Below are positions 11,310 to 29,787 of a stretch of 36,214 bases of DNA, in pieces. The stretch is taken from positions 1 through 36,214 of IMG/VR virus record IMGVR_UViG_3300025470_000044, one strand, 5' to 3'. The notes below the pieces were generated by a model, which was not told the origin of the DNA, made no database searches, and saw nothing but the letters and a program-made list of their open reading frames with translations. The position numbers and the translations under genes are program-made. This DNA is from a virus (taxonomy: Duplodnaviria > Caudoviricetes). Position 1 is the stretch's first letter, and every line of letters starts with the position of its first letter.

Positions 11310-11452
11310 TTGACCACCTCGCAATCGAACCTGAGGAAGGTGGTGATATCACCGGAGGCCTCGTGGACGGCCGTCCAAAGCATCCCGTCGCTGGTCAGCA
11401 GCCGGTGGGGGCGGCCGTAATGACGGCCCGAATAGACGATGACGTATTTCAT
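11306..11452 (-). CDS. Small hypothetical protein (48 aa), below ORF-track cutoff
   Basis: Hand translation MKYVIVYSGRHYGRPHRLLTSDGMLWTAVHEASGDITTFLRFDCEVVK; AAGGAGGT RBS; ATGA overlaps at both ends. Confidence 0.65.
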   Translation of the reverse strand: MKYVIVYSGRHYGRPHRLLTSDGMLWTAVHEASGDITTFLRFDCEVVK

Positions 11453-11631
11453 GCGACCTCCTTAACTTGCAATTTTTCCTCCAAGGCGCGGCGCAGCAAT
11501 TTGGAACGGTCCAGATCCTGCGACTCTACCCACAGATCAATGCGGGACAGTAGTTCAGAGGGCACCCACGCGCCAATGAAGGTCACTTCTGCCTTCGTCC
11601 GAGTTCCTCTTTTAGTGGTTCTGCGTGTCAT
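11449..11631 (-). CDS. Ribbon-helix-helix regulator (Cro/Ner position)
   Basis: FIGAWVPSELLSRIDLWVESQDLDRSKLLRRALEEKL, CopG/Arc-type pattern; first early gene. Confidence 0.8.
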   Translation of the reverse strand: MTRRTTKRGTRTKAEVTFIGAWVPSELLSRIDLWVESQDLDRSKLLRRALEEKLQVKEVA

Positions 11632-11640
11632 GTTGTAACT

Positions 11641-11707
11641 AGGTTAAACTCAGTTTAACGCCCGGTCAACATTTATTTTGACTTTTTTTAAGGCGGGCGT
11701 TAAAAGT
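11641..11707. promoter_or_regulatory. Back-to-back promoters and operators of the lysis/lysogeny switch
   Basis: Leftward TTGACC-17-TAACCT (11669-11641); rightward TTGACT-17-TAAAAG (11678-11706); palindrome GTTAAACT-C-AGTTTAAC (11643-11659); GGGCGTTAAA in both promoters. Confidence 0.75.
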
Positions 11708-11712
11708 GAATT

Positions 11713-12045
11713 ATGCCAGGTGGTCATAACGAAAACACAAAGCTGCTAGGATTTTTCGCCGATAACGATTTGATCGCGCGCGTTGACGCTGCACGCGGAG
11801 GCCAAGCGCGCTCGCAGTTTATGCGCGAGGCGACTGTCGAATATATCGAAAAGCACGGTGGCCAGGTGCCCGAGCATCTAAAGCACCCGCCCAGCCGCGC
11901 TGGTGTTGGAGGCCCCAAGAAAAAGCCAGGGCCTCAAGCTGACCGAACGTCAACTAATTTGACCAAAGCGAACGATGCCGCATCTGAAGTCGGCAAGCGT
12001 ATAAATCGCAAGATTCGCAGCCGCCACAAACCCGCCCAAGAATAA
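11713..12045 (+). CDS. Ribbon-helix-helix regulator (repressor position) with basic disordered tail
   Basis: KLLGFFADNDLIARVDAARGGQARSQFMREATVEYI; divergent from the early operon; probably leaderless. Confidence 0.75.
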   Translation: MPGGHNENTKLLGFFADNDLIARVDAARGGQARSQFMREATVEYIEKHGGQVPEHLKHPPSRAGVGGPKKKPGPQADRTSTNLTKANDAASEVGKRINRKIRSRHKPAQE

Positions 12046-12207: not shown

Positions 12208-12777
12208 ATGAAGGCAGAATCCCTACCCAGCGAAATTCACTTTGACTGCCCGAACTGCGAGCGCCACATGAAGGGGGAGCGTGCGCTCTTGGGGGAGATG
12301 GTTCAGTGTCCTGACTGCGAGACGAATTTCGTCCCATCACCCCGCAAGGATAAAAAAACCACATCCAAACCACCGCTTAATTGGAAGCGTAACCTTTATG
12401 GAGCGGTGATTCTATTGGCTGTTTTTGGCGCGGGTTATTTCATTCACCAATATTTGCGTGCCACGCAATTCAACGATCCCAATAATCTTGGGAATTACCT
12501 TGGCCCGCACGATGAACAGTCCATTAGCGCACTGGCCAAAATCAGCGAGCAGTTAATTTCGCCCAAGACTGCACAATTCGTTCATGGCAAGTTTTGGAAT
12601 GTTGATGGCCCCCAGAAAACTCTCGCGAGGATCACCATAGATTCTCAAAATGTTTACGGCGCTCTCATTCGGACAGAGTGGGGTATTCAAATGCACTTGT
12701 TCAGATACGAGACGAACAACTGGTGGTCCGTTGACGATTGTTTATTGCTGCAAGGCAGCAGAACCGTGCTTAAATAA
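12208..12777 (+). CDS. Zn-ribbon + single TM membrane protein (possible exclusion/lysogenic conversion)
   Basis: CPNC...CPDC, TM LYGAVILLAVFGAGYFI, C-terminal IDSQNVYGALIRT; visibly more AT-rich. Confidence 0.8.
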   Translation: MKAESLPSEIHFDCPNCERHMKGERALLGEMVQCPDCETNFVPSPRKDKKTTSKPPLNWKRNLYGAVILLAVFGAGYFIHQYLRATQFNDPNNLGNYLGPHDEQSISALAKISEQLISPKTAQFVHGKFWNVDGPQKTLARITIDSQNVYGALIRTEWGIQMHLFRYETNNWWSVDDCLLLQGSRTVLK

Positions 12778-12817: not shown

Positions 12818-12851
12818 GGAGCGCGCGACCAGAGGTTGCCGCTCCTTTTTT
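12818..12851 (+). terminator. Intrinsic terminator separating immunity region from late operon
   Basis: GGAGCG(C)GCGACC-AGA-GGTTGCCGCTCC followed by TTTTTT. Confidence 0.8.
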
Positions 12852-13079: not shown

Positions 13080-13835
13080 ATGAATAAAATCAAGTCCCTC
13101 TTTCTTGCCACTGTGTGCGTTTGCACGGTCGTCGCCAGCTCTCCGGCTCCGGCCCAGACAATTGCCATCACTGGCACCAGCCTGAGCAACATCCTCCAAC
13201 TTGCTGGCCTCTCGGCGCAACTCGCCAATAACCAACTCGTCCAGGTGGGTGTGCCCTTCACCCTGAACGGCAATCAGACGTTTCTGATCACCACCAACTC
13301 GGCCGGTCTATACACCATCACGACTTCCGGGCCGGGTGGCACCAACAGCTTCACGCCGCCCAGCACGCTCAGCTCCGCCCTGGCCACCAGCGAGAACTGG
13401 GTGGCCGCGAACAATCCCGCCAATATCGGCTACTATGCCACGAATGAGATCGAAGCGCGCGTGGGGGTGATGTACCTCCAGAATTCGGGCGAGGCAGCCG
13501 CAGTGCTGAGCGTGCAGAAATATGGCTGGTTCGGGTTTTCCAACTGGGGCGTGGGTGCGGGCATCTTGCAAGGCAACAAGGCCGGCCAGAGTGGCACGGC
13601 CGCTTACTACGGCGAGGTGGATTACCGCAAGCCCATTGGCGACGTGTCGGCGATCGGAGGCCTGGTGGGCGGCTATGACAAATGGAACTCCACCGGTTTC
13701 ATCGGTGCCAAGGCCGGGTTGGAATATCGCCAAAGCGCGCACCTGGGCGAATTCCTCGACGTGGTTTATGCCTACGAGTCCGGTCAATCGGATCGCGGCC
13801 TCATGATCGGCGGCGGCATCACCTACGCGTTCTGA
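13080..13835 (+). CDS. Signal-peptide protein, predicted small outer-membrane beta-barrel
   Basis: Signal MNKIK...APA|Q; about 8 amphipathic strands in the C-terminal half; ends GGGITYAF (BAM-type C-terminal Phe). Confidence 0.75.
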   Translation: MNKIKSLFLATVCVCTVVASSPAPAQTIAITGTSLSNILQLAGLSAQLANNQLVQVGVPFTLNGNQTFLITTNSAGLYTITTSGPGGTNSFTPPSTLSSALATSENWVAANNPANIGYYATNEIEARVGVMYLQNSGEAAAVLSVQKYGWFGFSNWGVGAGILQGNKAGQSGTAAYYGEVDYRKPIGDVSAIGGLVGGYDKWNSTGFIGAKAGLEYRQSAHLGEFLDVVYAYESGQSDRGLMIGGGITYAF

Positions 13836-13864
13836 GCTGGTTTGAGTCCACGGCTGAATTCCCC

Positions 13865-14674
13865 ATGAACCTCACCGCCCAAGAGTTTGACCTGGTCAAC
13901 GCCCGCGCTTGCCTGCAAGCCAGCGCGGACGCTTATCAGCGATCCACGATTCGCGTCACAGCCACCGACACGAATTGTCTGATCGTCGAGGATGCTGATT
14001 GCATCGTGCTGGCGTTCCGTGGGTCTGCCAGCATCCGCAATTGGATTACTGACGCCCAGTTCCAACGGACGACGCTTGTTTCGGGTGTGGATGGCACGGT
14101 GTCGAAGATTCACAAGGGTTTCGAATGGGCGTTCAACAGCATCTTCGAGCAGCTCCTGCTCGCCCTGGGCGGATGTAGTTTCGCTTCCCGCCAGAGCGGC
14201 AAGCCGCTGTTCATCACCGGTCATTCGCTGGGTGGCGCCTTGGCGATCCTGGCCGCGTTGGAATTGCAGCGCAACGGTTTTCGGATCGCCCAGGTATACA
14301 CCTTCGGCCAGCCACGCGTGGGCAATGGCGACTTTAAGCAGCGTTATGATGCCGTCCTGGGCCGGACAACCTTTCGGGTGGTGTATCAGGAGGACATCGT
14401 GCCACGCATCCCGCACCTGCCGGCCTGGCATGATCCCTATCGGCACGTGGGCAACGAAATGTTCATCAGCAGCCTGTCGCCGTTGAACAGCAGTCCGTTC
14501 TGGCTCAATCCGCCGATCTGGCGCCTGCTACTCTCTGATGCCTGGGGAATTTACCGCGCATTCACGGTTGCGAAGTTCGCCGGGGCATTGGATCCCGTCA
14601 TCGACCATCACATCAACAATTATCGCCTCGCGCTGGATGCAGCGGTGGAGACTGCATATACCGCCATCAAATAA
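13865..14674 (+). CDS. Class 3 lipase (alpha/beta hydrolase)
   Basis: VLAFRGS, IHKGF, ITGHSLGGALA, VYTFGQPRVG, DIVPRIP, YRHVG, DHHINNY; start MNLTAQ; no signal peptide. Confidence 0.92.
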   Translation: MNLTAQEFDLVNARACLQASADAYQRSTIRVTATDTNCLIVEDADCIVLAFRGSASIRNWITDAQFQRTTLVSGVDGTVSKIHKGFEWAFNSIFEQLLLALGGCSFASRQSGKPLFITGHSLGGALAILAALELQRNGFRIAQVYTFGQPRVGNGDFKQRYDAVLGRTTFRVVYQEDIVPRIPHLPAWHDPYRHVGNEMFISSLSPLNSSPFWLNPPIWRLLLSDAWGIYRAFTVAKFAGALDPVIDHHINNYRLALDAAVETAYTAIK

Positions 14675-14676
14675 CT

Positions 14677-15066
14677 ATGCTGACCCTGGCCGACATTACC
14701 TGGACCCAATTGGGCGAAGCTGCCATCGCCATCGGCACGCTTGGCGCGTTCGTCGTGGCCCTGTCCCTCGCTGGGCGCAAGACGGCCGTGAAGATCGACC
14801 AGGATCCCACTCCGGAATTCCGGAAGGCGTCCAAAAGGTACAACCACGATGCCACGGAGCAGCGCTTCGTCCACGTGGAAGCAATCGTCGCCCGGCACGA
14901 GTCCGATATCGACCGGCTAAAGGATCTATTCCGTGTGGATCTGCCGGCCATGGAACGACGCCTGGATGACGCCAGCGAAGGCCGGATCAGCGAGGTGCAT
15001 GATCGCGTGAACGAGATCCTGGGAGAAGTCCGGGAGCTGCGCGGCGAGATGAAAGGCAAGAAGTAA
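14677..15066 (+). CDS. N-terminal TM + coiled-coil protein (Mu gp25/DUF2730 position; possible lysis role)
   Basis: TM AAIAIGTLGAFVVALSLAG, then heptads; position before gp26-like gene. Confidence 0.65.
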   Translation: MLTLADITWTQLGEAAIAIGTLGAFVVALSLAGRKTAVKIDQDPTPEFRKASKRYNHDATEQRFVHVEAIVARHESDIDRLKDLFRVDLPAMERRLDDASEGRISEVHDRVNEILGEVRELRGEMKGKK

Positions 15067-15067
15067 T

Positions 15068-15322
15068 ATGAAATCAAAGATTCTCCGGGCCATCCTGGTC
15101 AGCTTGCTCCAATGCGATGGCACGCCAATGCCCGAGCCCGCGCTGCTGACCGCCGTGCAGATCCTTTGCCGGCCTGGCGAACCCACCGATGATGACGTGC
15201 GCGAGAAGCTCCGGTCTTTGGCCGGCGACCGGTATATCTGCGGCGTGACGGATGATCTCACCCAGGAGCGTTCCTGGACGCTCACGGACAAGGGCACGCA
15301 CAAGGCACGGCAGCTTCACTGA
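15068..15322 (+). CDS. Mu gp26-like winged-helix protein
   Basis: ILRAILVSL...VREKLRSL...WTLTDKG; position before small terminase. Confidence 0.6.
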   Translation: MKSKILRAILVSLLQCDGTPMPEPALLTAVQILCRPGEPTDDDVREKLRSLAGDRYICGVTDDLTQERSWTLTDKGTHKARQLH

Positions 15323-15329
15323 CTTGATC

Positions 15330-15995
15330 ATGGCCAAACAGCGCGCATCCAGCCTTGACCCGTTCGCCGCCCGGCTGACTCAGTGGCTCACTGCCCGAGA
15401 GGACGGCGGCGACGGCCTCACGCTGGCCCAGGCGCAGGAGCAGCTCGCGGCCGATGGCTGCCAGATCTCCGTCGGTCGTCTCTCGGAATGGTGGGCTGAC
15501 AAACAAAAGCGGGATGCCGACAAGCGATTCCTGGAGAACATCGCCAACGGCAGCCGGATGAGCAAACAGGTCAAGGCCGCGTTCGCCACGGAAGCGCCGC
15601 CGGAGATCCAGACGCTGATCAATGTGGTGCAGTCGCTCATCATGACTTTGCAGGTCAAAGGCGAGGCCAATCCGAAGTATTTGGAGATGGCCGATCGGCT
15701 GTTGCATTCCGTGCTGGAGTTCGCGCGCATGCAGACCGAAGCGGGCTTCGAGAAGATCAAGATTGAGATTCGACGGGCAGCGGAAGCGCGCATGCAGGAG
15801 AAGCTGCAGCTCGAACGCTCCAAGTTCGAAATGGAGTTCTGCGAAAAGATCCTGGACAAGGCCACGCGCGAGGCCGCGGAGCGGATCGCCGGGAGCAATC
15901 TGAGCAATGCCGACAAGATCGCCGCCATGCGCAAGGAAGCGTTCAAGGGCGTGGATGAACTCCAGGCCAGCGGAAAGGTGGTTATCCCCAAGTGA
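15330..15995 (+). CDS. Putative terminase small subunit (Mu gp27/DUF3486-like)
   Basis: MAKQRASSLDPF, HTH LTLAQAQEQL...ISVGRLSEW, coiled coil; directly upstream of TerL. Confidence 0.65.
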   Translation: MAKQRASSLDPFAARLTQWLTAREDGGDGLTLAQAQEQLAADGCQISVGRLSEWWADKQKRDADKRFLENIANGSRMSKQVKAAFATEAPPEIQTLINVVQSLIMTLQVKGEANPKYLEMADRLLHSVLEFARMQTEAGFEKIKIEIRRAAEARMQEKLQLERSKFEMEFCEKILDKATREAAERIAGSNLSNADKIAAMRKEAFKGVDELQASGKVVIPK

Positions 15996-17575
15996 AAAGG
16001 ATCCGCCGAGAATATCAGAACGTGGCGCTGGTGGCCGTGCGCGAGGTGCGGCAGATCGCTCTCTATTGGGCGCGCCGCTGCCGCAAGTCCACCACGTTGG
16101 GCGATATCGCCTTCGACGAAATGTCGAAGGAATCCGGCCGCATGGTCATTGCTGCCAGCGCATCACTACTCCTGGGCAAGGAACTGGTCGGGGTCACGCT
16201 CTCCGCTGCCGAGCAAGCCATGCTGGTGATGAACGAGGCCGCTGCGGTGCGCACGGTGTTCGAAACCGGGGCCGACGAAAACAAGCTCAGCTTCCAGGTG
16301 GCCGATTCGAGCACGGACAAATTGCTCAAGGGGCTGACCCCGGAAGATTTTGCGGAGTTGTACCAAAGCAGTCGGATGGAGCTCCGGCTCTATTTTGACA
16401 AGACGCACTTTTCCCGCCTGCAGGTGATCGCTCCCAATCCGGCCACGGCCCGCTCCTGGCGTGCCACGGTGCTCCGGGATGAGGCCGGTTTCACCAACGC
16501 CAATTTCGAGACCGAGCTGCGCATGGCCACCGATCCCATGATGCGCGACACCCCCGATCTCAAGATCATCTATGCCTCGAATCTTTCGAGTAACGACCGT
16601 CATCCGTATTTCGAGACCACCATGCCGCGCGAGATCACGGCTGAGACTGAGGATGAACAGTTCCCCGCCAATCCGGCCGGGCATCTCTATATTGGCCAAC
16701 ATGGGATACTGATCCATCGCGTGGCGCTCAAGGACGCTTATGCGGCCGGCCATAAGCTGTTTGACGATCACAGCCAGCCCATGACCTATGAGCAATGCCG
16801 GATGTTTCCCCAGTTCAAGTCCGGCTGGGACGGCACCTATGCGCTCAATCACAAGTCAGGTGGCGCGGCGGCGATCGACCTGATTGCGCTACTTTCGGCC
16901 CAGCGCCGGGGCATCGGCCAAAGCCATTTCGTGTTTGTGGAGACCGAGAGCGATGCCCGGCGCGCGTTCGACCTATTGCGCGGTTCACTCCGTGACGGCC
17001 CGGTCGGGGTGGGCTTTGACGTGGCCAGCACGACCGGCGAGATGAGCAACCCCAGTTCCATCACGTTTACCGAGAACGTCAGTGGCGAACGATTCCAACG
17101 TCTGGTGCTCGTGTTCAAATCCAAGAAGCGGGCGGTGATGTCGGATTATCTCCAGCGTGGCGTTCGCGTGGTCCGCGAACGTCCCGCTGGCGGTCCGGCC
17201 CGGCGGTTGTGCATTGATGCCAGCAACGAGCGCCTGGCCGCCGAAGAGACCAAGGATGATCTCTCGCCGCTGATCCCTATCGAACTGATCCTGGGCAATG
17301 CCAAGGTGGAACCCAAGCCCACCGGCTACGGGAATGACATCAACTACAAGACGTACCAAGGCGACTTGTATTGCGCCGCCGTGAATGAGGGGCGCACGGT
17401 CCTGCCGGCCGACGACTACATCAAACAGGATCATCGCCTGCCCATGAAGGCACAGGGCAAATACACCTGCCCGGTGGACAGCGACGGCCGGCACGGCGAC
17501 ACCTTCGACTCCGGGAAACAGGCCGAGTACGCCCTGATGGATCGCCCCCTCAACTTATGGTGCGCTACCGTATGA
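15992..17575 (+). CDS. Terminase large subunit
   Basis: WARRCRKST (Walker A variant), VLRDEAG (Walker B), IIYASN, nuclease VGFDVA, LCIDAS, GRHGDTF. Confidence 0.85.
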   Translation: MKRIRREYQNVALVAVREVRQIALYWARRCRKSTTLGDIAFDEMSKESGRMVIAASASLLLGKELVGVTLSAAEQAMLVMNEAAAVRTVFETGADENKLSFQVADSSTDKLLKGLTPEDFAELYQSSRMELRLYFDKTHFSRLQVIAPNPATARSWRATVLRDEAGFTNANFETELRMATDPMMRDTPDLKIIYASNLSSNDRHPYFETTMPREITAETEDEQFPANPAGHLYIGQHGILIHRVALKDAYAAGHKLFDDHSQPMTYEQCRMFPQFKSGWDGTYALNHKSGGAAAIDLIALLSAQRRGIGQSHFVFVETESDARRAFDLLRGSLRDGPVGVGFDVASTTGEMSNPSSITFTENVSGERFQRLVLVFKSKKRAVMSDYLQRGVRVVRERPAGGPARRLCIDASNERLAAEETKDDLSPLIPIELILGNAKVEPKPTGYGNDINYKTYQGDLYCAAVNEGRTVLPADDYIKQDHRLPMKAQGKYTCPVDSDGRHGDTFDSGKQAEYALMDRPLNLWCATV

Positions 17576-17732: not shown

Positions 17733-20072
17733 TTGAAATTGACCTTCGGCAACCTTTTTTCCGGTTTTTTCGGTCCAACCCCCTCCGGGATCCGGGCTTC
17801 GGACATGGAAATCAGCCGCCGCGACCCCACCGATGCCGGCATCGGGACCGGGAATTTCACCCAGGGACTGCCTGCTTTTTGGTTTGCGCGGGGCGTTGGT
17901 CACAATTCCAGCGAGAATCTTTACAAGCCGTATGCCGAATCCGCCTGGGTCCGGAGCGCCATCAAAAAGATTTCTCAGCCGATCGCCTCCTGCCAGGTGC
18001 TATTTAGCCGGCCGACCGGGGTTACCGTCCGGCGGCGGGGTAGCCGCCTCCGGCAGCTTTCCACCGCGCGCGGGATCGTTTACCGGTCCGATAGCGAACT
18101 GATCGACCTGCCCCAGATATCCGAATGGCTCAAAGAGCCGGTCGCAGACTTGACGTACCAAGATTTTGTGGAAGCCAGCGTTGGCTGGCTCAAGATGGCG
18201 GAGTGTTTCTGGGTCATCATGGATGCCGGCAACCGGGTGCCTTTTCCGGAGGTGAAGCTCAATCCGTATGCGCCGATCCTCATCCCGCAACCTGACCGGA
18301 TGCGTCCGACCATTGAGGATGGCGAAATCGTCAAATGGACGATGACCCGCGTCGGTGGCCAGACGGTGAATCTGGATCCCGACCAGGTCGTGCGGCTCCG
18401 CGGCTGGAATCCATACGACGAACATCGCGGCCTGGGCGATTACCGAGCCGTGCATGTGGCGGCGGAGGCGGACTGGCTGGCCGGCAAATTTGCCCGCAAC
18501 CTGATGGCGAACAATGGCGACACTTCGCGCATCATCAGCGTCAAGGGTGGCAATCCGGATGACAAGCAACGTGCCCAGTTGATTGCCGAGTTCAAAGCGC
18601 GCCGCATGGCCAGTTTGCGCGGCGAGAGCCGCGACGTGGTCGTGGGTGGCGATGTGGAACTGCACAACGCCGAGCTGGCCAGCATTGATCCATCGTTTGT
18701 GGCCCAGCGGATTGAGCATCGGCACGAGATCTATAATGGGCTGGATGTGCCCATGTCCATGGCCGACATTAAAGCGTCCTACTCCATCGGCAGCGCTTCG
18801 GACATGTTCCAGCTCCTGATCAATGCATGCATCCCGACCGGCGGAAAGTTGTGCGGCGCCCTGGAGAAATTATTTTTCAAGCTGACCGGCCAGCGGATCG
18901 AAGTGGGGCTAAACTGGGATGAGCATCCGTGCATGCAAGAGGTTCGGAAGGAGAGGCTAGACAGCATCGCCAAATTGGCGGCCCAGGGCATGCCCATGGA
19001 AGAGATCAATGAATATCTTGCCCTGGGACTGGTGAAGTATCCTGGCTGGGAAGTCGGTTATCTACCGGTGAGCGTCACGCCGGTGCTCAACGAAGATGGT
19101 GAAGTGAATCCCGCTCCCACGCCTGGCGACTTCAGTGAGACAATCGGTGATGACGGCGGCCAGCCCGGCGCGATCGACGACGGCAGCGATACTCCCAAGG
19201 ATGGCGACGCCCCCGAAGTAAAGGCCATGCTTGCCGCCCTCCGCTGCAAATGCGCGCCGCCCGGCCAATCCAAAGTCAAATCCTCCAAGAACGAAAAGCT
19301 CTGGCAATCTCTGATGCGTCTCCGCACCAAGAGCGTGAAGATGTACCAGAGCAAGTGCAGCAAGCTCTTCCTCCAGTACCGGGCCGCCGCGCTGCGCAAA
19401 CTGGAACACGCGCACACCGACAAGTCCGCCCAGACCAAATCCCTGGTGGACGTGATCTTCGACCAAGTGATGTTCAAGCACGATATCAGCAGTGCGCTGG
19501 ATCCTGTCACCCAGATCACCTTGCAGACTGCCGGCACGGAGCTGCTGGAAGAAATCGGCCGCAAGGATGATCCGTGGAAGTTTCCGCCGGCTGATGCCAA
19601 GAAGTTCATTGCCAGTCGGGAAAACCTGATCAAGGGCGTATCCGACACGGCGTTCAACCAATTGCGGACCGCGCTCAAGGCCGGCCTGGATAAAGGCGAG
19701 ACCATGGCAGAGCTCGCCGGACGCGTCAAAACGGTGTTCAACCATTTGAGCAACTTCGAGGCGCGCCGGATCGCCATGACAGAGACCAGCGCGGCCTATG
19801 GCTTCAGCCGCAACGTGGCCATGGAAAACGCCGGCATTGAGTACAAGGCATGGTTGACCAGTCATGGCGACAATGTGCGTCTGGCTCACCAGGAGGCCGA
19901 AGAGAATTTCGGGCCGGATAATCCGATCCCGCTGGATCAGCCCTTCCTGGTGGCCGGCGAAGAGCTGATGTATCCGGGCGATCCCGCCGGCTCGCCGGAG
20001 AATGTGATCAATTGTCACTGCGTGCAGATCGCCGTGCAGGCGCCTGCAGGTGAACAGGAGGAAGAAGACTAA
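17733..20072 (+). CDS. Portal protein (HK97-like) fused to Mu gpF/SPP1 gp7-like head morphogenesis domain
   Basis: TTG start with GGAGGT; WVRSAIKKI, WLKEP, PDRMRP, EEINEYLAL; C-terminal ARRIAMTET, KAWLT, VRLAH, YPGDP...ENVINCHC. Confidence 0.85.
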   Translation: MKLTFGNLFSGFFGPTPSGIRASDMEISRRDPTDAGIGTGNFTQGLPAFWFARGVGHNSSENLYKPYAESAWVRSAIKKISQPIASCQVLFSRPTGVTVRRRGSRLRQLSTARGIVYRSDSELIDLPQISEWLKEPVADLTYQDFVEASVGWLKMAECFWVIMDAGNRVPFPEVKLNPYAPILIPQPDRMRPTIEDGEIVKWTMTRVGGQTVNLDPDQVVRLRGWNPYDEHRGLGDYRAVHVAAEADWLAGKFARNLMANNGDTSRIISVKGGNPDDKQRAQLIAEFKARRMASLRGESRDVVVGGDVELHNAELASIDPSFVAQRIEHRHEIYNGLDVPMSMADIKASYSIGSASDMFQLLINACIPTGGKLCGALEKLFFKLTGQRIEVGLNWDEHPCMQEVRKERLDSIAKLAAQGMPMEEINEYLALGLVKYPGWEVGYLPVSVTPVLNEDGEVNPAPTPGDFSETIGDDGGQPGAIDDGSDTPKDGDAPEVKAMLAALRCKCAPPGQSKVKSSKNEKLWQSLMRLRTKSVKMYQSKCSKLFLQYRAAALRKLEHAHTDKSAQTKSLVDVIFDQVMFKHDISSALDPVTQITLQTAGTELLEEIGRKDDPWKFPPADAKKFIASRENLIKGVSDTAFNQLRTALKAGLDKGETMAELAGRVKTVFNHLSNFEARRIAMTETSAAYGFSRNVAMENAGIEYKAWLTSHGDNVRLAHQEAEENFGPDNPIPLDQPFLVAGEELMYPGDPAGSPENVINCHCVQIAVQAPAGEQEEED

Positions 20073-20993: not shown

Positions 20994-22559
20994 ATGAAAC
21001 AATATCTGAATCGTCAAAAAATGCTCGGCTGGCTTGGTTTTGCCATGCTCGCCGTGATCGCCATCTGCTTTGCGCTGCCCACACTCGGCGCATCGCTGCT
21101 GCTGCCCCTGGCGGCGGTATCCCCCAAACTGTTCCTGGGCGCCCTGGGCATGATGCACAAAGGCGTCTTCGCCTGTGCGGCGCTTCCCTTCGGTTGCATC
21201 CTTCGGGACAAGGCCGGCGCTGAAGGCGGCGAAAGTGCCTCGTTCGAAAGCAAGGTGCTTAAAGGCGTCGAGAAACTGACCGAGACGCAAACCAAACAGT
21301 CGAACGACATCGCCAAGGTGCTCGCCGATATGGATCGCGCCGACAAAGAAGTCAAATCGGCCATGGAGGAATTGACCAAGGTCAAGAACGCCACCAATTC
21401 CAGCGTGGAGGACATCAACAAAAAGATCATGGCTGTGCAGAAATCGGTTGCCATCAATGCGCGTTCCAGTTTCCGCAGCCCCATCGCGCGTGCCTTGGCG
21501 GATGAAGAATTCCGCTTCGGAATCAATGCTCTGGCTCGCTACATCCTGGCGGCCAAGGGCGCCAGCAAACTGGATCCGGCCCATCTGAAGTTCGTTGAAG
21601 ACGGCAAGGCCGCCCACAAGGCGCTGACCGGCGTGGACACCGGCCTCGGCCAGGCTACTGTGCCCACCGCGACGTTTGACACCATCTATGATTTGCTCCT
21701 GCAGTATGGCGATTATGCCACGCTGGGAGTTGATCGGGTGGGCGCCCGCACCAATGTGCTGCCCGTGGCCACCAGCCGCCCGCAGTTCTATTGGATTGGC
21801 TCTCAATCCAGCTTGGCGGAATCCTCGCAGATCACGGCGGGTGCTTTCGGCGGCGGTCAGGTGCTCCTGATCGTCCAGACGTTGGCCGTGCTCATGTATG
21901 TCGCGCGCGAACTGCTCCAAGACTCCACCGTGGATCTGGCTCCCTACGTCGTGCGCCAGATGATCCAGTCGATCGCCTGGGGCATGGATACCGCTGCCTT
22001 TATCGGCAACGGCAATGCGGACACCACCAATGCCGGCTACGTCGGGATTTTCAACGCCGCCCTGGCGAACTCCAACCTGGGCGTCAGCGCCGGCGCCGGC
22101 CGCACCGTCGTCAGCAAGCTGTTGATTGACGACTTCGTGGCCACGATCCTGGGCGTGAGCGCGCAAGTACTCAACAAGAAGCCCATGTGGTGGGCGCACC
22201 CGCAGATGATGGCGCGCATCGCGCTGATCAAGGACGGTTTGGGCCGACCGATCTTCCAGACCTGGCAGGAGGTTCCCTCGCCGGGCTCGATCGGCAGCAT
22301 CCTGGGCTATCCCGTCCACCCGACCGCCATCGCGCCTAACACGGACGGCAACAGCCAGCCCGTGGCGGCATTTGGCGATCCCGATGGTCAGGTCAACGGC
22401 ATCCGCGCCGACTTGGAACTGGCCACCAGCGAGGATATTGGCTTCCCGCAAAACCTGGTTGCCTATCGCACGCTGTTGCGCGCCGGCGTCAAGATCCTGA
22501 CGACTCCCGGATCCACCACCCTCAAACCGTTCGCCGTTCTCTCGAACGCGGCGGTCTAA
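20994..22559 (+). CDS. HK97-family major capsid protein with hydrophobic N-terminal extension
   Basis: Coiled-coil delta domain, KALTG...GQATVP, VARELLQDS, AFIGNG, LIKDGLGRPIF, SILGYPV, AFGD. Confidence 0.92.
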   Translation: MKQYLNRQKMLGWLGFAMLAVIAICFALPTLGASLLLPLAAVSPKLFLGALGMMHKGVFACAALPFGCILRDKAGAEGGESASFESKVLKGVEKLTETQTKQSNDIAKVLADMDRADKEVKSAMEELTKVKNATNSSVEDINKKIMAVQKSVAINARSSFRSPIARALADEEFRFGINALARYILAAKGASKLDPAHLKFVEDGKAAHKALTGVDTGLGQATVPTATFDTIYDLLLQYGDYATLGVDRVGARTNVLPVATSRPQFYWIGSQSSLAESSQITAGAFGGGQVLLIVQTLAVLMYVARELLQDSTVDLAPYVVRQMIQSIAWGMDTAAFIGNGNADTTNAGYVGIFNAALANSNLGVSAGAGRTVVSKLLIDDFVATILGVSAQVLNKKPMWWAHPQMMARIALIKDGLGRPIFQTWQEVPSPGSIGSILGYPVHPTAIAPNTDGNSQPVAAFGDPDGQVNGIRADLELATSEDIGFPQNLVAYRTLLRAGVKILTTPGSTTLKPFAVLSNAAV

Positions 22560-22618: not shown

Positions 22619-23548
22619 ATGTTGAAATCCGAATCTGAAATTAAAGCGCTCCCCTTGGATGAGCTGCAAAAGCTCGTCGTTGAGCTGGGCTTGGTTCCGT
22701 CCAATGACAAGAACTACGCCAACAGCCGAGCCCTGTTGGAATTCGCCACTGGGTTGAAAAAATTCAAACCCGCCGAACAGATCACCGTGGAAAACACGGC
22801 TGATTTCCCGATCCCGGTGGATGGCAAAGTCATTGCTCCCGGAGAGACCGCGAAGATCTATCCCTGGCAATACACCAGCCTTAGTCGCTGGCTCTCGAAG
22901 GTGGCCGCTGCCGCCGCCCTCATCTTGGCCACTCTGTTCCTGAGCTTTGCGCCCAGCGCCCAAGCCCAGGTGCAGCCGTATGTGTTTGGCAATCCATCGC
23001 AATACAACGTCATGGCCGTCAACGGCTACGCCGGTTGGACGAATCTGCTGAACACCTCCGGCGCGGCCACCAACGGCACCGGCGGCTGGTCCAACATCGT
23101 CAGTACCGCAACCGCCGTGTACTACACCGCGGCCATCACCAATGCGACCACGATCATCACCAACGCCAACTGGCAGTTTAACACTGGCATCTGGACGAAT
23201 ATCCCGACCTATACCACCAACATCACGGTGAATTACCCTGGCTTGGTCTCGGTCGTGAACAGTGACACCCTGGGCATCGAGCTCGGCGGCCAGCTCCTGA
23301 ATGCTGGCACTGGCACCAACTTCGTGGCCAACTGGGATTATTCCAACGATGGCGTGTACTGGCAGACCAATGCACTCACTCAGTCGCTCATCCTGAACGG
23401 CACGACCTACGTCGCCACCAATACCCAGTTGACGCTGTTCGCGCCCGGCTTCCTTCGCCTGGACAGTCTCAGCACCTTGCCCATCGGCGCCACCGTGACG
23501 AATGTCACCGTGGAAATCGCCAAGAAGCCGTACCGCACTGGTCCGTAA
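22619..23548 (+). CDS. Head-module protein: soluble N-domain + internal signal-like segment + Thr/Asn-rich beta domain
   Basis: LPLDELQKLVVELGL (HeH/Rho-N-like); RWLSK-VAAAAALILATLFLSF-APSAQA|Q; YSNDGVYW Asp-box-like motif. Confidence 0.8.
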   Translation: MLKSESEIKALPLDELQKLVVELGLVPSNDKNYANSRALLEFATGLKKFKPAEQITVENTADFPIPVDGKVIAPGETAKIYPWQYTSLSRWLSKVAAAAALILATLFLSFAPSAQAQVQPYVFGNPSQYNVMAVNGYAGWTNLLNTSGAATNGTGGWSNIVSTATAVYYTAAITNATTIITNANWQFNTGIWTNIPTYTTNITVNYPGLVSVVNSDTLGIELGGQLLNAGTGTNFVANWDYSNDGVYWQTNALTQSLILNGTTYVATNTQLTLFAPGFLRLDSLSTLPIGATVTNVTVEIAKKPYRTGP

Positions 23549-27133: not shown

Positions 27134-27529
27134 ATGACCGTTAACTACCAAGTCGTCGGCGGTTCTGGTTGGACGCTTCTCTTCAACGAAGCAGCCGGTG
27201 ATGCCAACGAACGATTTGCCCCCACGTTCCGCGACCAGTTGCAGAGCGTGAGCGGCTATGGCGCAGCCAATACGGTCAAGGTGCCCCAATCAAACACCCA
27301 AGGCCAATTGGCCTTGCGCTGGTCAAGCAACTACGCCAGCGCTGATGCCGCCCTGGCCGCTATCAAGACGCTTCGATCCACCTTCAAGGGTGTGGCCGTG
27401 AATCTGCAAGTGATCCAGGGTGCCACCACGCAATACTTCAACAACGCCGTGCTGAGCAGCAGCGCCCACGATCTCCACGGCAAGGAGTGCATGCACAGCA
27501 TGACCTTCGAGACCGACGATATTTCATGA
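27134..27529 (+). CDS. Tail-module protein (131 aa), possibly distal-tail-like
   Basis: Beta-rich ORF, ATGA-coupled to the next gene. Confidence 0.6.
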   Translation: MTVNYQVVGGSGWTLLFNEAAGDANERFAPTFRDQLQSVSGYGAANTVKVPQSNTQGQLALRWSSNYASADAALAAIKTLRSTFKGVAVNLQVIQGATTQYFNNAVLSSSAHDLHGKECMHSMTFETDDIS

Positions 27530-29787
27530 GAAAACTCGCCCTCATTTTTAGTTTTGCATTTTTAATTTTGCATTGCTCGGCCACGCCCGTGCTCTTTTCC
27601 TTGCAGGCATTAAACGGTAGCGCGGCCAACCGCACCATCTTGGTGACGCCGGATCCCGTCACGCCGGCGACTTATGGTACCAACCTGGTGCCGCTCACAT
27701 CCATCACCCTTCAGCCAGTCGGCGGCAGCATCACTACCAACCTGCTGAGCTGGGGATATACCGTGCGAGTGGACGGTTGGAGCCAGGGAATTCATATCAT
27801 TGTGCCAACAGCCACCAATACGATCAACGTCGTCACCTTGATCAATACGAATGCGTTTATCGGCTCCAACATTTATTTGCCTGGAGCTTTTTCCCTTGGC
27901 GGTTATGTCCCCGGCACAAATGGTAATCCTGTCGCCTGGATGCTTGGCTTGGATGCCTTCGGGAATCTCGCCAGCAATGCGGTACCCACTGGGGGTTCTG
28001 GCGGGGGCAGCGGAACTATCACCAATGCCTTGCCAACGAATGCGGCCCTGCCGAGCGTGGCAGGCCCGATCGTCTTCATCCCGACCAATTACGACAGCGT
28101 TGGTGCGGCCCAGAGTTCGACGAATGTCCTGGGCTCGGCTGCTTGGAAAAGCATTGGCTTCTTTGACCTTTTTGGTGCGGCTCAGAATGCGACGAACGGA
28201 TTGGTGAATGCCAACCTCTTTGTCACGCACACGGACGGCTACAACTATACGAACACCAGCGGCGTGTATATGGGCACGTTCGGTGGTGGCCCAAGTGCCG
28301 CCTATTTTGCCGACGGTGTGAGCAGCCTCTATGATTCAATCACTGGTGGCAGTAATGGCCTCGCAATACTTGGCAACATTGAATTGCCGGCCACCAACTT
28401 CTACTTTGGAAATGGAAAGTACCTCTCCAATCTTCCCCCGACCGCAATCGTTGGAAACGCGGTCACGAATATCGCAGCCGGCGGCGGATCCACGAACCTA
28501 CTCGGCACGACATCGGGCGGGGTCGAGGTTCCTGTTCCGTGGTCTGCGCTTCCGAGTAGTGGGGGATCAATGCCCAATGGCGTGGTGACGAATGGCGGGG
28601 GGCAGACCATCACGAACCTCGGGCCGAATGGCTACCAACTTGGGAGTGGTGGCGCAACTTGGTGGATAATGACGAATGCGCTCGGGGCGCTTTGCTTAAG
28701 CAATCAGTACGGCTCTCTTACGCTGTCCACCAATTTGTGTATTACAAACAACTCTGCCGCCGCGCTGATCGCAGGCCTTGGACTGGTTCAGTCAGGTGGG
28801 TACGTCTATGCCGGACGGCTAAACGCAAGTGTTTCGCTGCAAATTAATTCACAGGCTTCGCAAGCACTTAACGCGACGGCGGCTGGCCTATATGTCGGCG
28901 ACGGAGCTTCTCATCCGGTTGGCACCGTTATCGCGTCCAACCTGCAGTTGTCCGGCAGCGCATTCCTTTCCAACGGGTTTGCGGTGTATCAGAGCCCGGT
29001 AACGACCACGAATCCGTTTGCCGTGTACGGCACCAATGGAGTGAAGGTCCACTGGGTGGATACGAACAATTCGGTGTGGTTCTATGCGGGTGGAAACTCG
29101 ATGCAAGTCACCAACGGCGCGGCCGTCATTTTCCCGGATGCACCGGGCACCGGCTTCTACCCGAATTATGGACTGGTGGAGTCTGGCGGCAGTTTCCCGG
29201 CGTCCATTGACTTCTACAACGGCAACATCTACGCCAATTCAAACCTGTACGTCATGGGGGCTGAGACCATATATGGATCGTTGGCTGCGGGCAATGTGAC
29301 TGCATCTGGTGCGTTCAATGGGAATGGGGCTGGTTTGACAAACCTGAACCTGTCGACCGCCCTTCGAGTTGATTGCATACAGATGTGGAAGACAAACCCA
29401 ACCCCAACCATTGCAGCGTTGAACGCTATTACCAACTGGAATGGGACGACTGGTGTCAGCAATAATTTCACAGCCAACTTTCCCGCTGGAACCGTAACCA
29501 ATTTGAACGCCGGATTATTTGTGCTAAACACGCAAACGGATTACCAAAATAACAACGCAATTTCTTTGGCCGTCCTGTCCAATGGTGTTCCCATCGGGCC
29601 AGTAATTCCGGGCTCTTATGGTGGTGGATCAAGTGCGTCTGACCGTGGGCCGTGGATCAATGGGTTACTCGTGGTCCTGCCCGCGAACACAGCTATTTCT
29701 ATTGCACCAACCAATTATAATGGCCTCGGCCTGGTGGGCGGTGCGACGACAAACGCGATCATGTCCATTTACAAAATTTCCAACTAA
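27526..29787 (+). CDS. Fibre/adhesin-like protein with N-terminal signal peptide (753 aa)
   Basis: Start MRKLALIFSFAFLILHCSA|T by ATGA overlap; G/T/N-rich; YFGNGKYLSNL and FNGNGAGLTNL; C-terminal BclA/C1q-like pattern ending SIYKISN. Confidence 0.75.
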   Translation: MRKLALIFSFAFLILHCSATPVLFSLQALNGSAANRTILVTPDPVTPATYGTNLVPLTSITLQPVGGSITTNLLSWGYTVRVDGWSQGIHIIVPTATNTINVVTLINTNAFIGSNIYLPGAFSLGGYVPGTNGNPVAWMLGLDAFGNLASNAVPTGGSGGGSGTITNALPTNAALPSVAGPIVFIPTNYDSVGAAQSSTNVLGSAAWKSIGFFDLFGAAQNATNGLVNANLFVTHTDGYNYTNTSGVYMGTFGGGPSAAYFADGVSSLYDSITGGSNGLAILGNIELPATNFYFGNGKYLSNLPPTAIVGNAVTNIAAGGGSTNLLGTTSGGVEVPVPWSALPSSGGSMPNGVVTNGGGQTITNLGPNGYQLGSGGATWWIMTNALGALCLSNQYGSLTLSTNLCITNNSAAALIAGLGLVQSGGYVYAGRLNASVSLQINSQASQALNATAAGLYVGDGASHPVGTVIASNLQLSGSAFLSNGFAVYQSPVTTTNPFAVYGTNGVKVHWVDTNNSVWFYAGGNSMQVTNGAAVIFPDAPGTGFYPNYGLVESGGSFPASIDFYNGNIYANSNLYVMGAETIYGSLAAGNVTASGAFNGNGAGLTNLNLSTALRVDCIQMWKTNPTPTIAALNAITNWNGTTGVSNNFTANFPAGTVTNLNAGLFVLNTQTDYQNNNAISLAVLSNGVPIGPVIPGSYGGGSSASDRGPWINGLLVVLPANTAISIAPTNYNGLGLVGGATTNAIMSIYKISN

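Follow-up and report, generated by a model that had tools for sequence, protein, structure and literature searches.

A lysis slot with a predicted outer-membrane barrel, a class 3 lipase and no recognisable endolysin in a Mu-like phage of probable Limisphaerales hosts

An endolysin is regarded as indispensable to tailed phages, and the locus described here raises the question of how one of them might leave its host when no such enzyme can be recognised. The locus lies in the virus record IMGVR_UViG_3300025470_000044 (Caudoviricetes), analysed over its whole length of 36,214 nucleotides and hereafter called the window. This 36.2-kb record is a transposable phage, with a transposase, a MuB-like ATPase and Gam in its left arm; the genes for head and tail make up its right arm. 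Positions 13080-15066 hold three open reading frames (ORFs) on the + strand, coding for a predicted eight-stranded outer-membrane (OM) beta-barrel of 251 amino acids (13080..13835, the first gene of the late block), a class 3 lipase of 269 amino acids (13865..14674, with its ATG at 13865 and a GHSLGG motif that begins at 14219) and a protein of 129 amino acids with a single transmembrane (TM) segment (14677..15066). An initial annotation, made from the sequence alone, had read these genes as a lipolytic, membrane-directed exit system, possibly suited to a host with atypical peptidoglycan (PG). Since these phages have no recognisable endolysin and belong to host orders mostly devoid of the main penicillin-binding proteins of class A (aPBPs), they likely exit via the membranes, and we favour on balance a putative membrane-directed lysis through a loose, SEDS-built wall.

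Endolysin absence and the host wall

The genes at 13080-15066 occupy the late lysis slot of a Mu-like phage, as first proposed, because relatives carry their holins and endolysins there. Terminase relatives hold Phage_holin_10, Holin_LLH, CHAP, Amidase_2 and DPBB proteins in the same slot, which GH108 and M15 enzymes also occupy in relatives, and the lysis genes of Mu (block gp22-gp23-gp23.1-gp25-gp26-gp27-gp28) lie at the same position (PMC9239132). The initial failure to recognise an endolysin in the window was borne out by every search: no PG hydrolase was found in 49 ORFs screened against Pfam and PHROGs, in 23 screened against NCBIfam or in 6 more screened against Pfam, and tblastn with the endolysins of relatives gave no match. 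Structure models cover the barrel and the lipase, the other ORFs being judged by sequence profiles, and a PG hydrolase of unrecognised fold is possible among the unknown ORFs of the window. Likewise, no endolysin was found in nine whole contigs from phages of the lipase or C92 type, either by tblastn or by Pfam searches of 163 of their 192 cluster representatives, among which a single NlpC/P60 protein was found, in the tail region.

The host of the phage is very probably a member of the order Limisphaerales (Verrucomicrobia). The closest relatives of the lipase, the TM protein (61%), gp26 (63%), gp27 and the large terminase (TerL, 81%) are encoded by Limisphaerales prophages, and the slot of one 'Limisphaerales bacterium' genome itself consists of a barrel, a lipase and a TM protein. 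The closest match of the MuB-like protein (54%) is in a genome of the same order (G001), matches being present in 4 of 78 genomes, and the relatives of TerL are almost confined to records labelled Verrucomicrobiota or unclassified.

Slots were compared between orders by searching 401 genomes per order with a gp26 profile, which matched 82 Limisphaerales and 52 Chthoniobacterales genomes. Regions were taken from the stronger matches (60 and 40; loci already sampled and several contig-end and weak matches were left out), and those with less than 2.4 kb upstream were dropped (5 and 3), leaving 55 Limisphaerales and 37 Chthoniobacterales slots; some of the regions fetched are remnants or false matches. 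PG-hydrolase-like genes occurred in none of the 55 Limisphaerales slots and in 28 of the 37 Chthoniobacterales slots (0/60 and 29/40 before dropping), so that the absence noted in the window is general in Limisphaerales prophages. Twenty of the 28 calls belong to Pfam-named families (GH108, DPBB, CHAP and GH75), several of the DPBB and CHAP matches lying under the curated cut-off, and the remaining eight are labels given by eye without database confirmation. Lipase_3 was found in 19/55 Limisphaerales slots and 0/37 Chthoniobacterales slots. When other alpha/beta hydrolases and permuted NlpC/P60 proteins are included, 26 of the 55 Limisphaerales slots contain such an enzyme, and three of the 37 Chthoniobacterales slots have an alpha/beta hydrolase or C92 protein next to an endolysin-like gene. 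A blind screen against Pfam of 74 proteins from Limisphaerales slots, from which evident host or regulatory cluster representatives were left out, revealed no PG hydrolase, and genome-wide GH108 was detected in 1/251 Limisphaerales vs 13/251 Chthoniobacterales genomes (p 0.0016).

This difference parallels the PBP content of the hosts. PF00912, the class A PBP transglycosylase, was absent from all five hosts of lipase- or hydrolase-type prophages and present in 5/5 Chthoniobacterales hosts; in a larger set, which leaves out 5 of 85 genomes for size, it was found in 7/49 Limisphaerales hosts, as single copies, vs 31/31 Chthoniobacterales hosts. Across Limisphaerales it occurred in 29 of 121 genomes, and the four single copies examined were all PBP1C. 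The hosts have kept FtsW/RodA (61/61), MreB (59/61 over the cut-off), class B PBPs (26/26) and MraY (5/5). Thus SEDS proteins (RodA, FtsW), two class B PBPs and MreB are present in hosts of Limisphaerales, a large order of free-living bacteria; PBP1A/B-type enzymes were not found in most of them, and for this reason their wall is predicted to be loose. The atypical host PG suggested at the outset is supported at the level of the order: the gene content of PG-intermediate bacteria was found for Limisphaerales as an order rather than for the window's own host, with mraY as the sole lipid II gene checked and from incomplete genomes. PG-intermediate bacteria are described as having less PG, probably with a larger mesh (PMC8406291); the supplementary table of that work lists Opitutus, Lacunisphaera and Coraliomargarita as having SEDS and class B PBPs only, and Pedosphaera and Limisphaera do not appear in it. 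In the literature that we consulted, including PMC13608581, nothing was found on the amount or cross-linking of Limisphaerales PG. A host without PG is ruled out by MraY, SEDS proteins, class B PBPs and MreB. We regard the wall built without aPBPs as the probable cause of the endolysin absence.

Further orders were sampled on a smaller scale. PF00912 was missing from five Opitutales hosts and one unplaced host, and their slots, mostly made up of holin-like genes and lipoproteins, hold no PG hydrolase. The named and cultured strain Geminisphaera colitermitum TAV2 carries an endolysin-less slot that combines a holin-like gene and lipoproteins with no lipase. Weak CHAP matches were found in the slots of two Verrucomicrobiales hosts, which carry 3 and 5 copies of PF00912, and a Methylacidiphilales slot holds an M15 peptidase (PF00912 was looked at in another genome of that group). 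A quick TerL tree with 32 rows intermixes phages that have an endolysin with phages that lack one, and the window's clade of six (support 99) includes two endolysin-type Chthoniobacterales prophages; the type of cassette therefore goes with the host more than with the lineage of the packaging genes. We are fairly confident that the endolysin-free slot is a trait of the lineage.

The slots compared also contain genes of other kinds. At the endolysin position of Chthoniobacterales slots, a family represented by L392:4268-4837 (phrog_3000) has an L,D-transpeptidase-like HxG...SxGC motif, and unnamed proteins are coded by L382 and L038 (one family) and by L396:4009-4602; these are candidates for new endolysin families. 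The YkuD-like, lysozyme-like and L396 families of these slots had no named match in Pfam or PHROGs, and the first two had none in the PDB; the eight PG-hydrolase-like calls made by eye belong to these families. Passengers include a metacaspase Peptidase_C14 (L323:3262-4008), a DNA adenine methylase (L072:2932-3690) and, by eye, glycosyltransferase-like proteins (L313, L067, L373-L375, L078) and response-regulator receivers (L030, L031). PDB matches of the C92 proteins are YiiX and a relative of it from Bacillus, and the YiiX-type group has been tied to lipid substrates (PMC12994826). DUF1353, which we had thought of as a PLA2-like enzyme with an invariant HD motif, received no support from the Atlas or the PDB and was consequently not counted as lipid-acting.

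The barrel, the lipase and the membrane protein

The content of the slot as first described, a barrel, a class 3 lipase with Ser-Asp-His motifs and a single-TM protein, was confirmed, the coiled coil of the latter by eye only. The barrel has a signal-peptide-like N-terminus (residues about 1-25, by eye and hydropathy) and an N-terminal domain of about 95 amino acids ahead of its strands. Its AlphaFold model (pLDDT 85) shows eight strands in succession over residues 123-250, the barrel being closed at a terminal Phe that is invariant or nearly so across 40 homologues; the signal peptide, eight antiparallel strands and C-terminal aromatic residue of an eight-stranded OM beta-barrel are thus all found. 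Moments of 0.26-0.49, calculated without a control, hint at an amphipathic helix ahead of the barrel. The top Foldseek matches are the barrels of OmpA, OmpX, Ail and OprF (E 1e-4 to 1e-3). Lom is a phage-encoded OM barrel of the OmpX/Ail type, and the barrel of the window shares with the OmpX/Ail/Lom and OmpA barrels its fold, signal peptide, C-terminal aromatic residue and phage origin. Unlike them, it has an extra N-terminal domain and no Pfam match: none of its 40 homologues has a Pfam domain, and no profile match to the Ail/Lom family was obtained in Pfam, PHROG or NCBIfam. It also differs from the OmpX/Ail/Lom barrels in that it opens a lysis slot, is swapped with lipoproteins and belongs to a family sometimes fused to holin-like segments.

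The exchange with lipoproteins is apparent upstream of the lipase, where, of 29 loci examined with a script, 10 have only a barrel, 12 only a lipoprotein, 2 have both and 5 neither, so that one or the other precedes the lipase in 24/29; by eye, the five last loci have a lipoprotein with a truncated start or a more distant barrel. In slots of Limisphaerales metagenome-assembled genomes, barrels are rare (4/55 by profile) and lipoproteins common (32/55). Holin-like segments are fused ahead of a signal peptide and barrel or lipoprotein in several slots (L317:3520-4326, L324:3858-4580, L318:3184-3906, L337:3591-4163, L333, L361 and L085:6788-7516), and in endolysin-less slots three proteins combine a lipobox with one or more C-terminal TM segments (L312:3285-4199, L332:4099-4944 and L315:3391-4251), a layout like that of unimolecular spanins. 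In non-Mu phages the same barrel family sits after holin-like genes and before a permuted NlpC/P60 protein or a patatin, the latter in L024. Because it alternates with lipoproteins and is fused to holin-like segments in sister slots, the barrel behaves, as far as sequences indicate, as an exchangeable OM component of the cassette; that it breaks the OM is a tentative proposal. Conservation of the barrel-lipase-TM triplet, which had been expected, was not observed, given this alternation and the lack of a lipid-acting enzyme in more than half of the Limisphaerales slots.

The lipase matches Pfam Lipase_3 (PF01764; E 1.4e-32, 113 bits, cut-off 22), with an alpha/beta hydrolase fold, and its triad S121, D177 and H248 is invariant in 56/56 aligned homologues. 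An N-terminal hydrophobic segment is absent from all 32 slot lipases, leaving no export signal, in agreement with the cytoplasmic location proposed initially. Its occurrence in relatives is not sporadic: in 28 of 33 viral lipase loci, by eye, the order is lipase, TM protein, gp26, gp27 and terminase, across several unrelated terminase types (L093, L096, L111 and L121, near-duplicates or already counted, are left out). A metagenome scan with the lipase profile gave mostly short or distant loci. The lipase is rather likely to act in lysis.

The third protein has one TM segment (residues 15-33). Its family shows more lysine and arginine on the C-terminal side in 47/47 members (positive-inside count), which predicts an N-out/C-in topology with the soluble part facing the cytoplasm. 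The gene adjoins that of gp26, the position of gp25 (releasin) in Mu, and the protein has the topology of gp25, with one N-terminal TM segment. As a member of the DUF2730 (PF10805)/gp25 family it was rejected, with no Pfam match and an hhalign probability of 2.4% against the single Mu sequence, and no nearby endolysin that a releasin could release was found by Pfam, PHROGs, NCBIfam or tblastn. The family is also present, and equally frequent, in endolysin-bearing phages. Predicted to face the cytoplasm and standing at the gp25 position, the protein is not an i-spanin, whose topology is the opposite (N-in/C-out), and the OM/inner-membrane pair of barrel and TM protein envisaged in the initial annotation is therefore unlikely. 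As in that annotation, no lipoprotein spanin is recognised: no lipobox protein, and hence no two-component spanin of the Rz/Rz1 type, was found in the window's slot.

The surrounding genes complete the late block. Upstream, a terminator-like hairpin with a T run (12818..12851, +) parts it from a membrane-protein gene, this being a consensus match only, of a kind no more frequent than in shuffled sequences. No terminator-like site was found in the 29-bp gap between the barrel and lipase genes of the window, and hairpins 3' of the barrel gene gave no consistent terminator across loci. Downstream, on the + strand, lie a Mu gp26-like winged-helix protein that served as slot marker (15068..15322; hhalign against Mu gp26 E 1.7e-4, probability 49%), a gp27-like small terminase assigned by position (15330..15995; one slot relative weakly matches Phage_Mu_Gp27, E 3e-4) and the probable TerL (15992..17575), recognised by position and a P-loop-like motif, without a Pfam or PHROG match and with relatives in Verrucomicrobiota prophages.

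Elsewhere in the window, a low-GC zinc-ribbon/TM gene (12208-12777, the membrane-protein gene just mentioned) and two divergent small regulator-like genes (11449-12045), one with a weak RHH match, stand mid-genome and divide the leftward early from the rightward late genes. The portal forms one protein with a head morphogenesis domain like that of Mu gpF (17733-20072); this transposable phage has lambda/HK97-type head genes. The N-terminus of its HK97-type major capsid protein (20994-22559) is a leader of about 50-70 amino acids, hydrophobic and TM-like, which is shared by L413:1534-3033, L417:17167-18666 and L421:15634-17130 and absent from L430, which suggests a membrane-anchored prohead assembly. 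A simple heuristic detected a Sec-type signal peptide on a tail-fibre-like protein (27526-29787) and an internal signal-like segment in the product of 22619-23548. Signal peptides on tail-fibre-like or other late proteins were also seen in L413, L416, L417, L421, L423, L427, L429, L022-L024, L063 and L037, in endolysin-less and endolysin-bearing Verrucomicrobiota phages alike, and such proteins may be exported and joined to virions late.

Weighing the readings

In the membrane-directed lysis that we favour, the barrel would be exported and inserted into the OM during late expression, taking the role of the lipoproteins of sister phages. The signal-less lipase would accumulate in the cytoplasm and cut acyl esters in the phospholipids of the inner membrane, which would yield lysolipids with detergent-like action, and the protein at the gp25 position, the only membrane protein of the slot because no separate holin is found there, would time or aid the failure of the inner membrane. 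The lipase would then meet the inner leaflet of the OM, which the barrel would weaken, and turgor, perhaps with the aid of hydrolases of the host, would rip the sparse wall built by SEDS proteins.

Several points weigh against this scenario. The host is only inferred; among the loci compared, the portal, protease and capsid are closest to a Chthoniobacter prophage, and a Spartobacteria prophage has a TerL with 78% identity to that of the window. PG machinery is retained, with OmpA_C (Pal-type) in 5/5, YkuD (L,D-transpeptidase) in 4/5 and SLT (lytic transglycosylase) in 3/5 hosts, and Lacunisphaera, a member of the Opitutaceae without aPBPs, is reported to yield sacculi despite low diaminopimelic acid (PMC5303756), so that a wall must still be crossed. 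The best PDB matches of the lipase are fungal class 3 lipases (E 1.5e-35), its preference for phospholipids being putative, and the model does not explain what would restrain a lipase in the cytoplasm. Limisphaerales and Opitutales may share a single loss of aPBPs, which would leave fewer independent contrasts. Moreover, 29 of the 55 Limisphaerales slots have no lipid-acting enzyme at all, and the lipase therefore cannot be the general mechanism: it is an accessory, exchangeable part, and what the clade has in common is that an endolysin is missing. Accessories of the C92, DUF1353, PLD and glycosyltransferase-like types also adjoin true endolysins in Chthoniobacterales slots, so slot position alone is no proof of a lytic role. 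As to the searches, the tblastn endolysin queries came from the Chthoniobacterales set itself, Amidase_2 was absent from 20 viral records of which only one is at least 90% complete (CheckV), and the one Limisphaerales GH108 gene (L432, G221:C103), which has a holin-like ORF next to it and sits on a short contig, may represent a real exception or mis-binning.

The retained sacculus machinery and hydrolases of the hosts bring forward a first alternative, in which the wall is still a barrier and is attacked in an unrecognised way, either by a PG hydrolase of unknown fold or by the TM protein or another small protein that inhibits SEDS-only synthesis of PG or sets off autolysins of the host, the lipase and barrel then substituting for a spanin at the OM only. 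Most late ORFs have no family match in what was a sequence-profile search only, permuted NlpC/P60 proteins, found in 5/55 slots, could cut peptides, and the TM protein is the one gene present in nearly all slots (45/58 and 27/39), at the position where gp25 of Mu has a proven role in lysis (PMC9239132). However, the TM protein is equally present alongside endolysins, and no common soluble protein of enzyme size stands in for the endolysin across slots; we consider such a cryptic attack possible but unlikely.

Less likely still is that barrel and lipase are cargo, the former a Lom/Ail-like or receptor-masking OM protein and the latter an enzyme for lipid scavenging or post-lysis release, with exit achieved by the TM protein and host factors. 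The OmpX/Ail/OmpA fold of the barrel, widespread in phages, would fit this idea, as would the methylases, response regulators and glycosyltransferase-like genes housed in slots and the majority of slots without a lipid-acting enzyme. Against it stand the regular presence of a barrel or lipoprotein ahead of the lipase (24/29 loci, with both in only two), the fusions of barrels to holin-like segments, the barrel-lipase gap free of terminator-like sites and the absence of Lipase_3 from all 37 endolysin-type (Chthoniobacterales) slots. A largely non-lytic release of virions in OM vesicles or blebs following digestion of the inner membrane, with which the lack of both endolysin and spanin pair and the TM or signal-like N-termini of capsid and tail-fibre-like proteins would agree, is very improbable, as sister slots commonly hold holin-like genes and endolysin-bearing phages (L063, L037) also have signal-bearing tail proteins.

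Known systems and implications

The closest precedent is Wolbachia phage WO, whose host is intracellular and not available in pure culture. For this phage a patatin lytic cassette has been proposed in which, with neither endolysin nor spanin, a lipid hydrolase stands beside a protein of less than 150 amino acids with one N-terminal TM segment and a charged coiled-coil tail (PMC9203015). Sister phages of WO bear GH108 instead (PMC9203015), just as relatives of the window have endolysins, and the WO host is listed as PG-intermediate and without class A PBPs (PMC8406291). A lipid hydrolase, a single-TM protein with a coiled coil (by eye), no endolysin and an aPBP-less host (assigned through relatives) are likewise found here. 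The two cassettes, both putative, differ in that the window has a class 3 lipase rather than a patatin, an OM barrel or lipoprotein as partner rather than an ankyrin protein, a Mu-like transposable phage as carrier and free-living hosts; neither the patatin fold nor an ankyrin protein was found in the window, a patatin being present only in the relative L024.

Mycobacteriophage LysB, the next closest system, is also a GXSXG alpha/beta hydrolase with a Ser-Asp-His triad, encoded in a lysis cassette and directed at envelope lipids (PMC6116114), a role that is putative for the lipase described here. LysB is cutinase-like, accompanies LysA and cuts mycolate esters (PMC6116114), whereas the window has no endolysin and its probable host is a diderm without mycolates; the lipase does not belong to the LysB class despite the shared motif. 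With the lysis block of Mu the window has in common the slot position, the similarity of gp26, a holin-less layout and an N-out/C-in single-TM protein right before gp26; gp25 is required in Mu for release of the signal-anchor-release (SAR) endolysin (PMC9239132), and the window has no SAR endolysin, no two-component spanin and no sequence link between its TM protein and gp25/DUF2730.

The titles and abstracts that we searched, with subscription journals and bioRxiv supplements outside that scope, describe no endolysin-free lysis by lipases for Verrucomicrobiota prophages. The cassette of the window is a variant of a proposed but unproven kind; new are the loss of the endolysin throughout an order, the agreement of that loss with the PBP content of the hosts and the barrel as a component of the slot. 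The only published exception that we found to the need for an endolysin, phage WO, is itself a proposal. Here, endolysin loss tracks the absence of class A PBPs across several free-living orders, and near-identical terminase lineages switch cassette with the host. This opens to test lysis without PG hydrolysis and the load borne by a SEDS-only wall, as the cultured TAV2 carries such a slot, and makes lipases and small barrels candidate OM lysis proteins. It is possible, though we put it forward with more doubt than any single step above, that in entire orders of free-living Verrucomicrobia without aPBPs the tailed phages have given up the endolysin and leave solely by attacking the membranes, through exchangeable lipid hydrolases and a spanin-replacing beta-barrel that would represent a new class of OM lysis proteins. 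If endolysins have indeed been dropped across aPBP-less orders, lysis cassettes would report the wall architecture of uncultured hosts.

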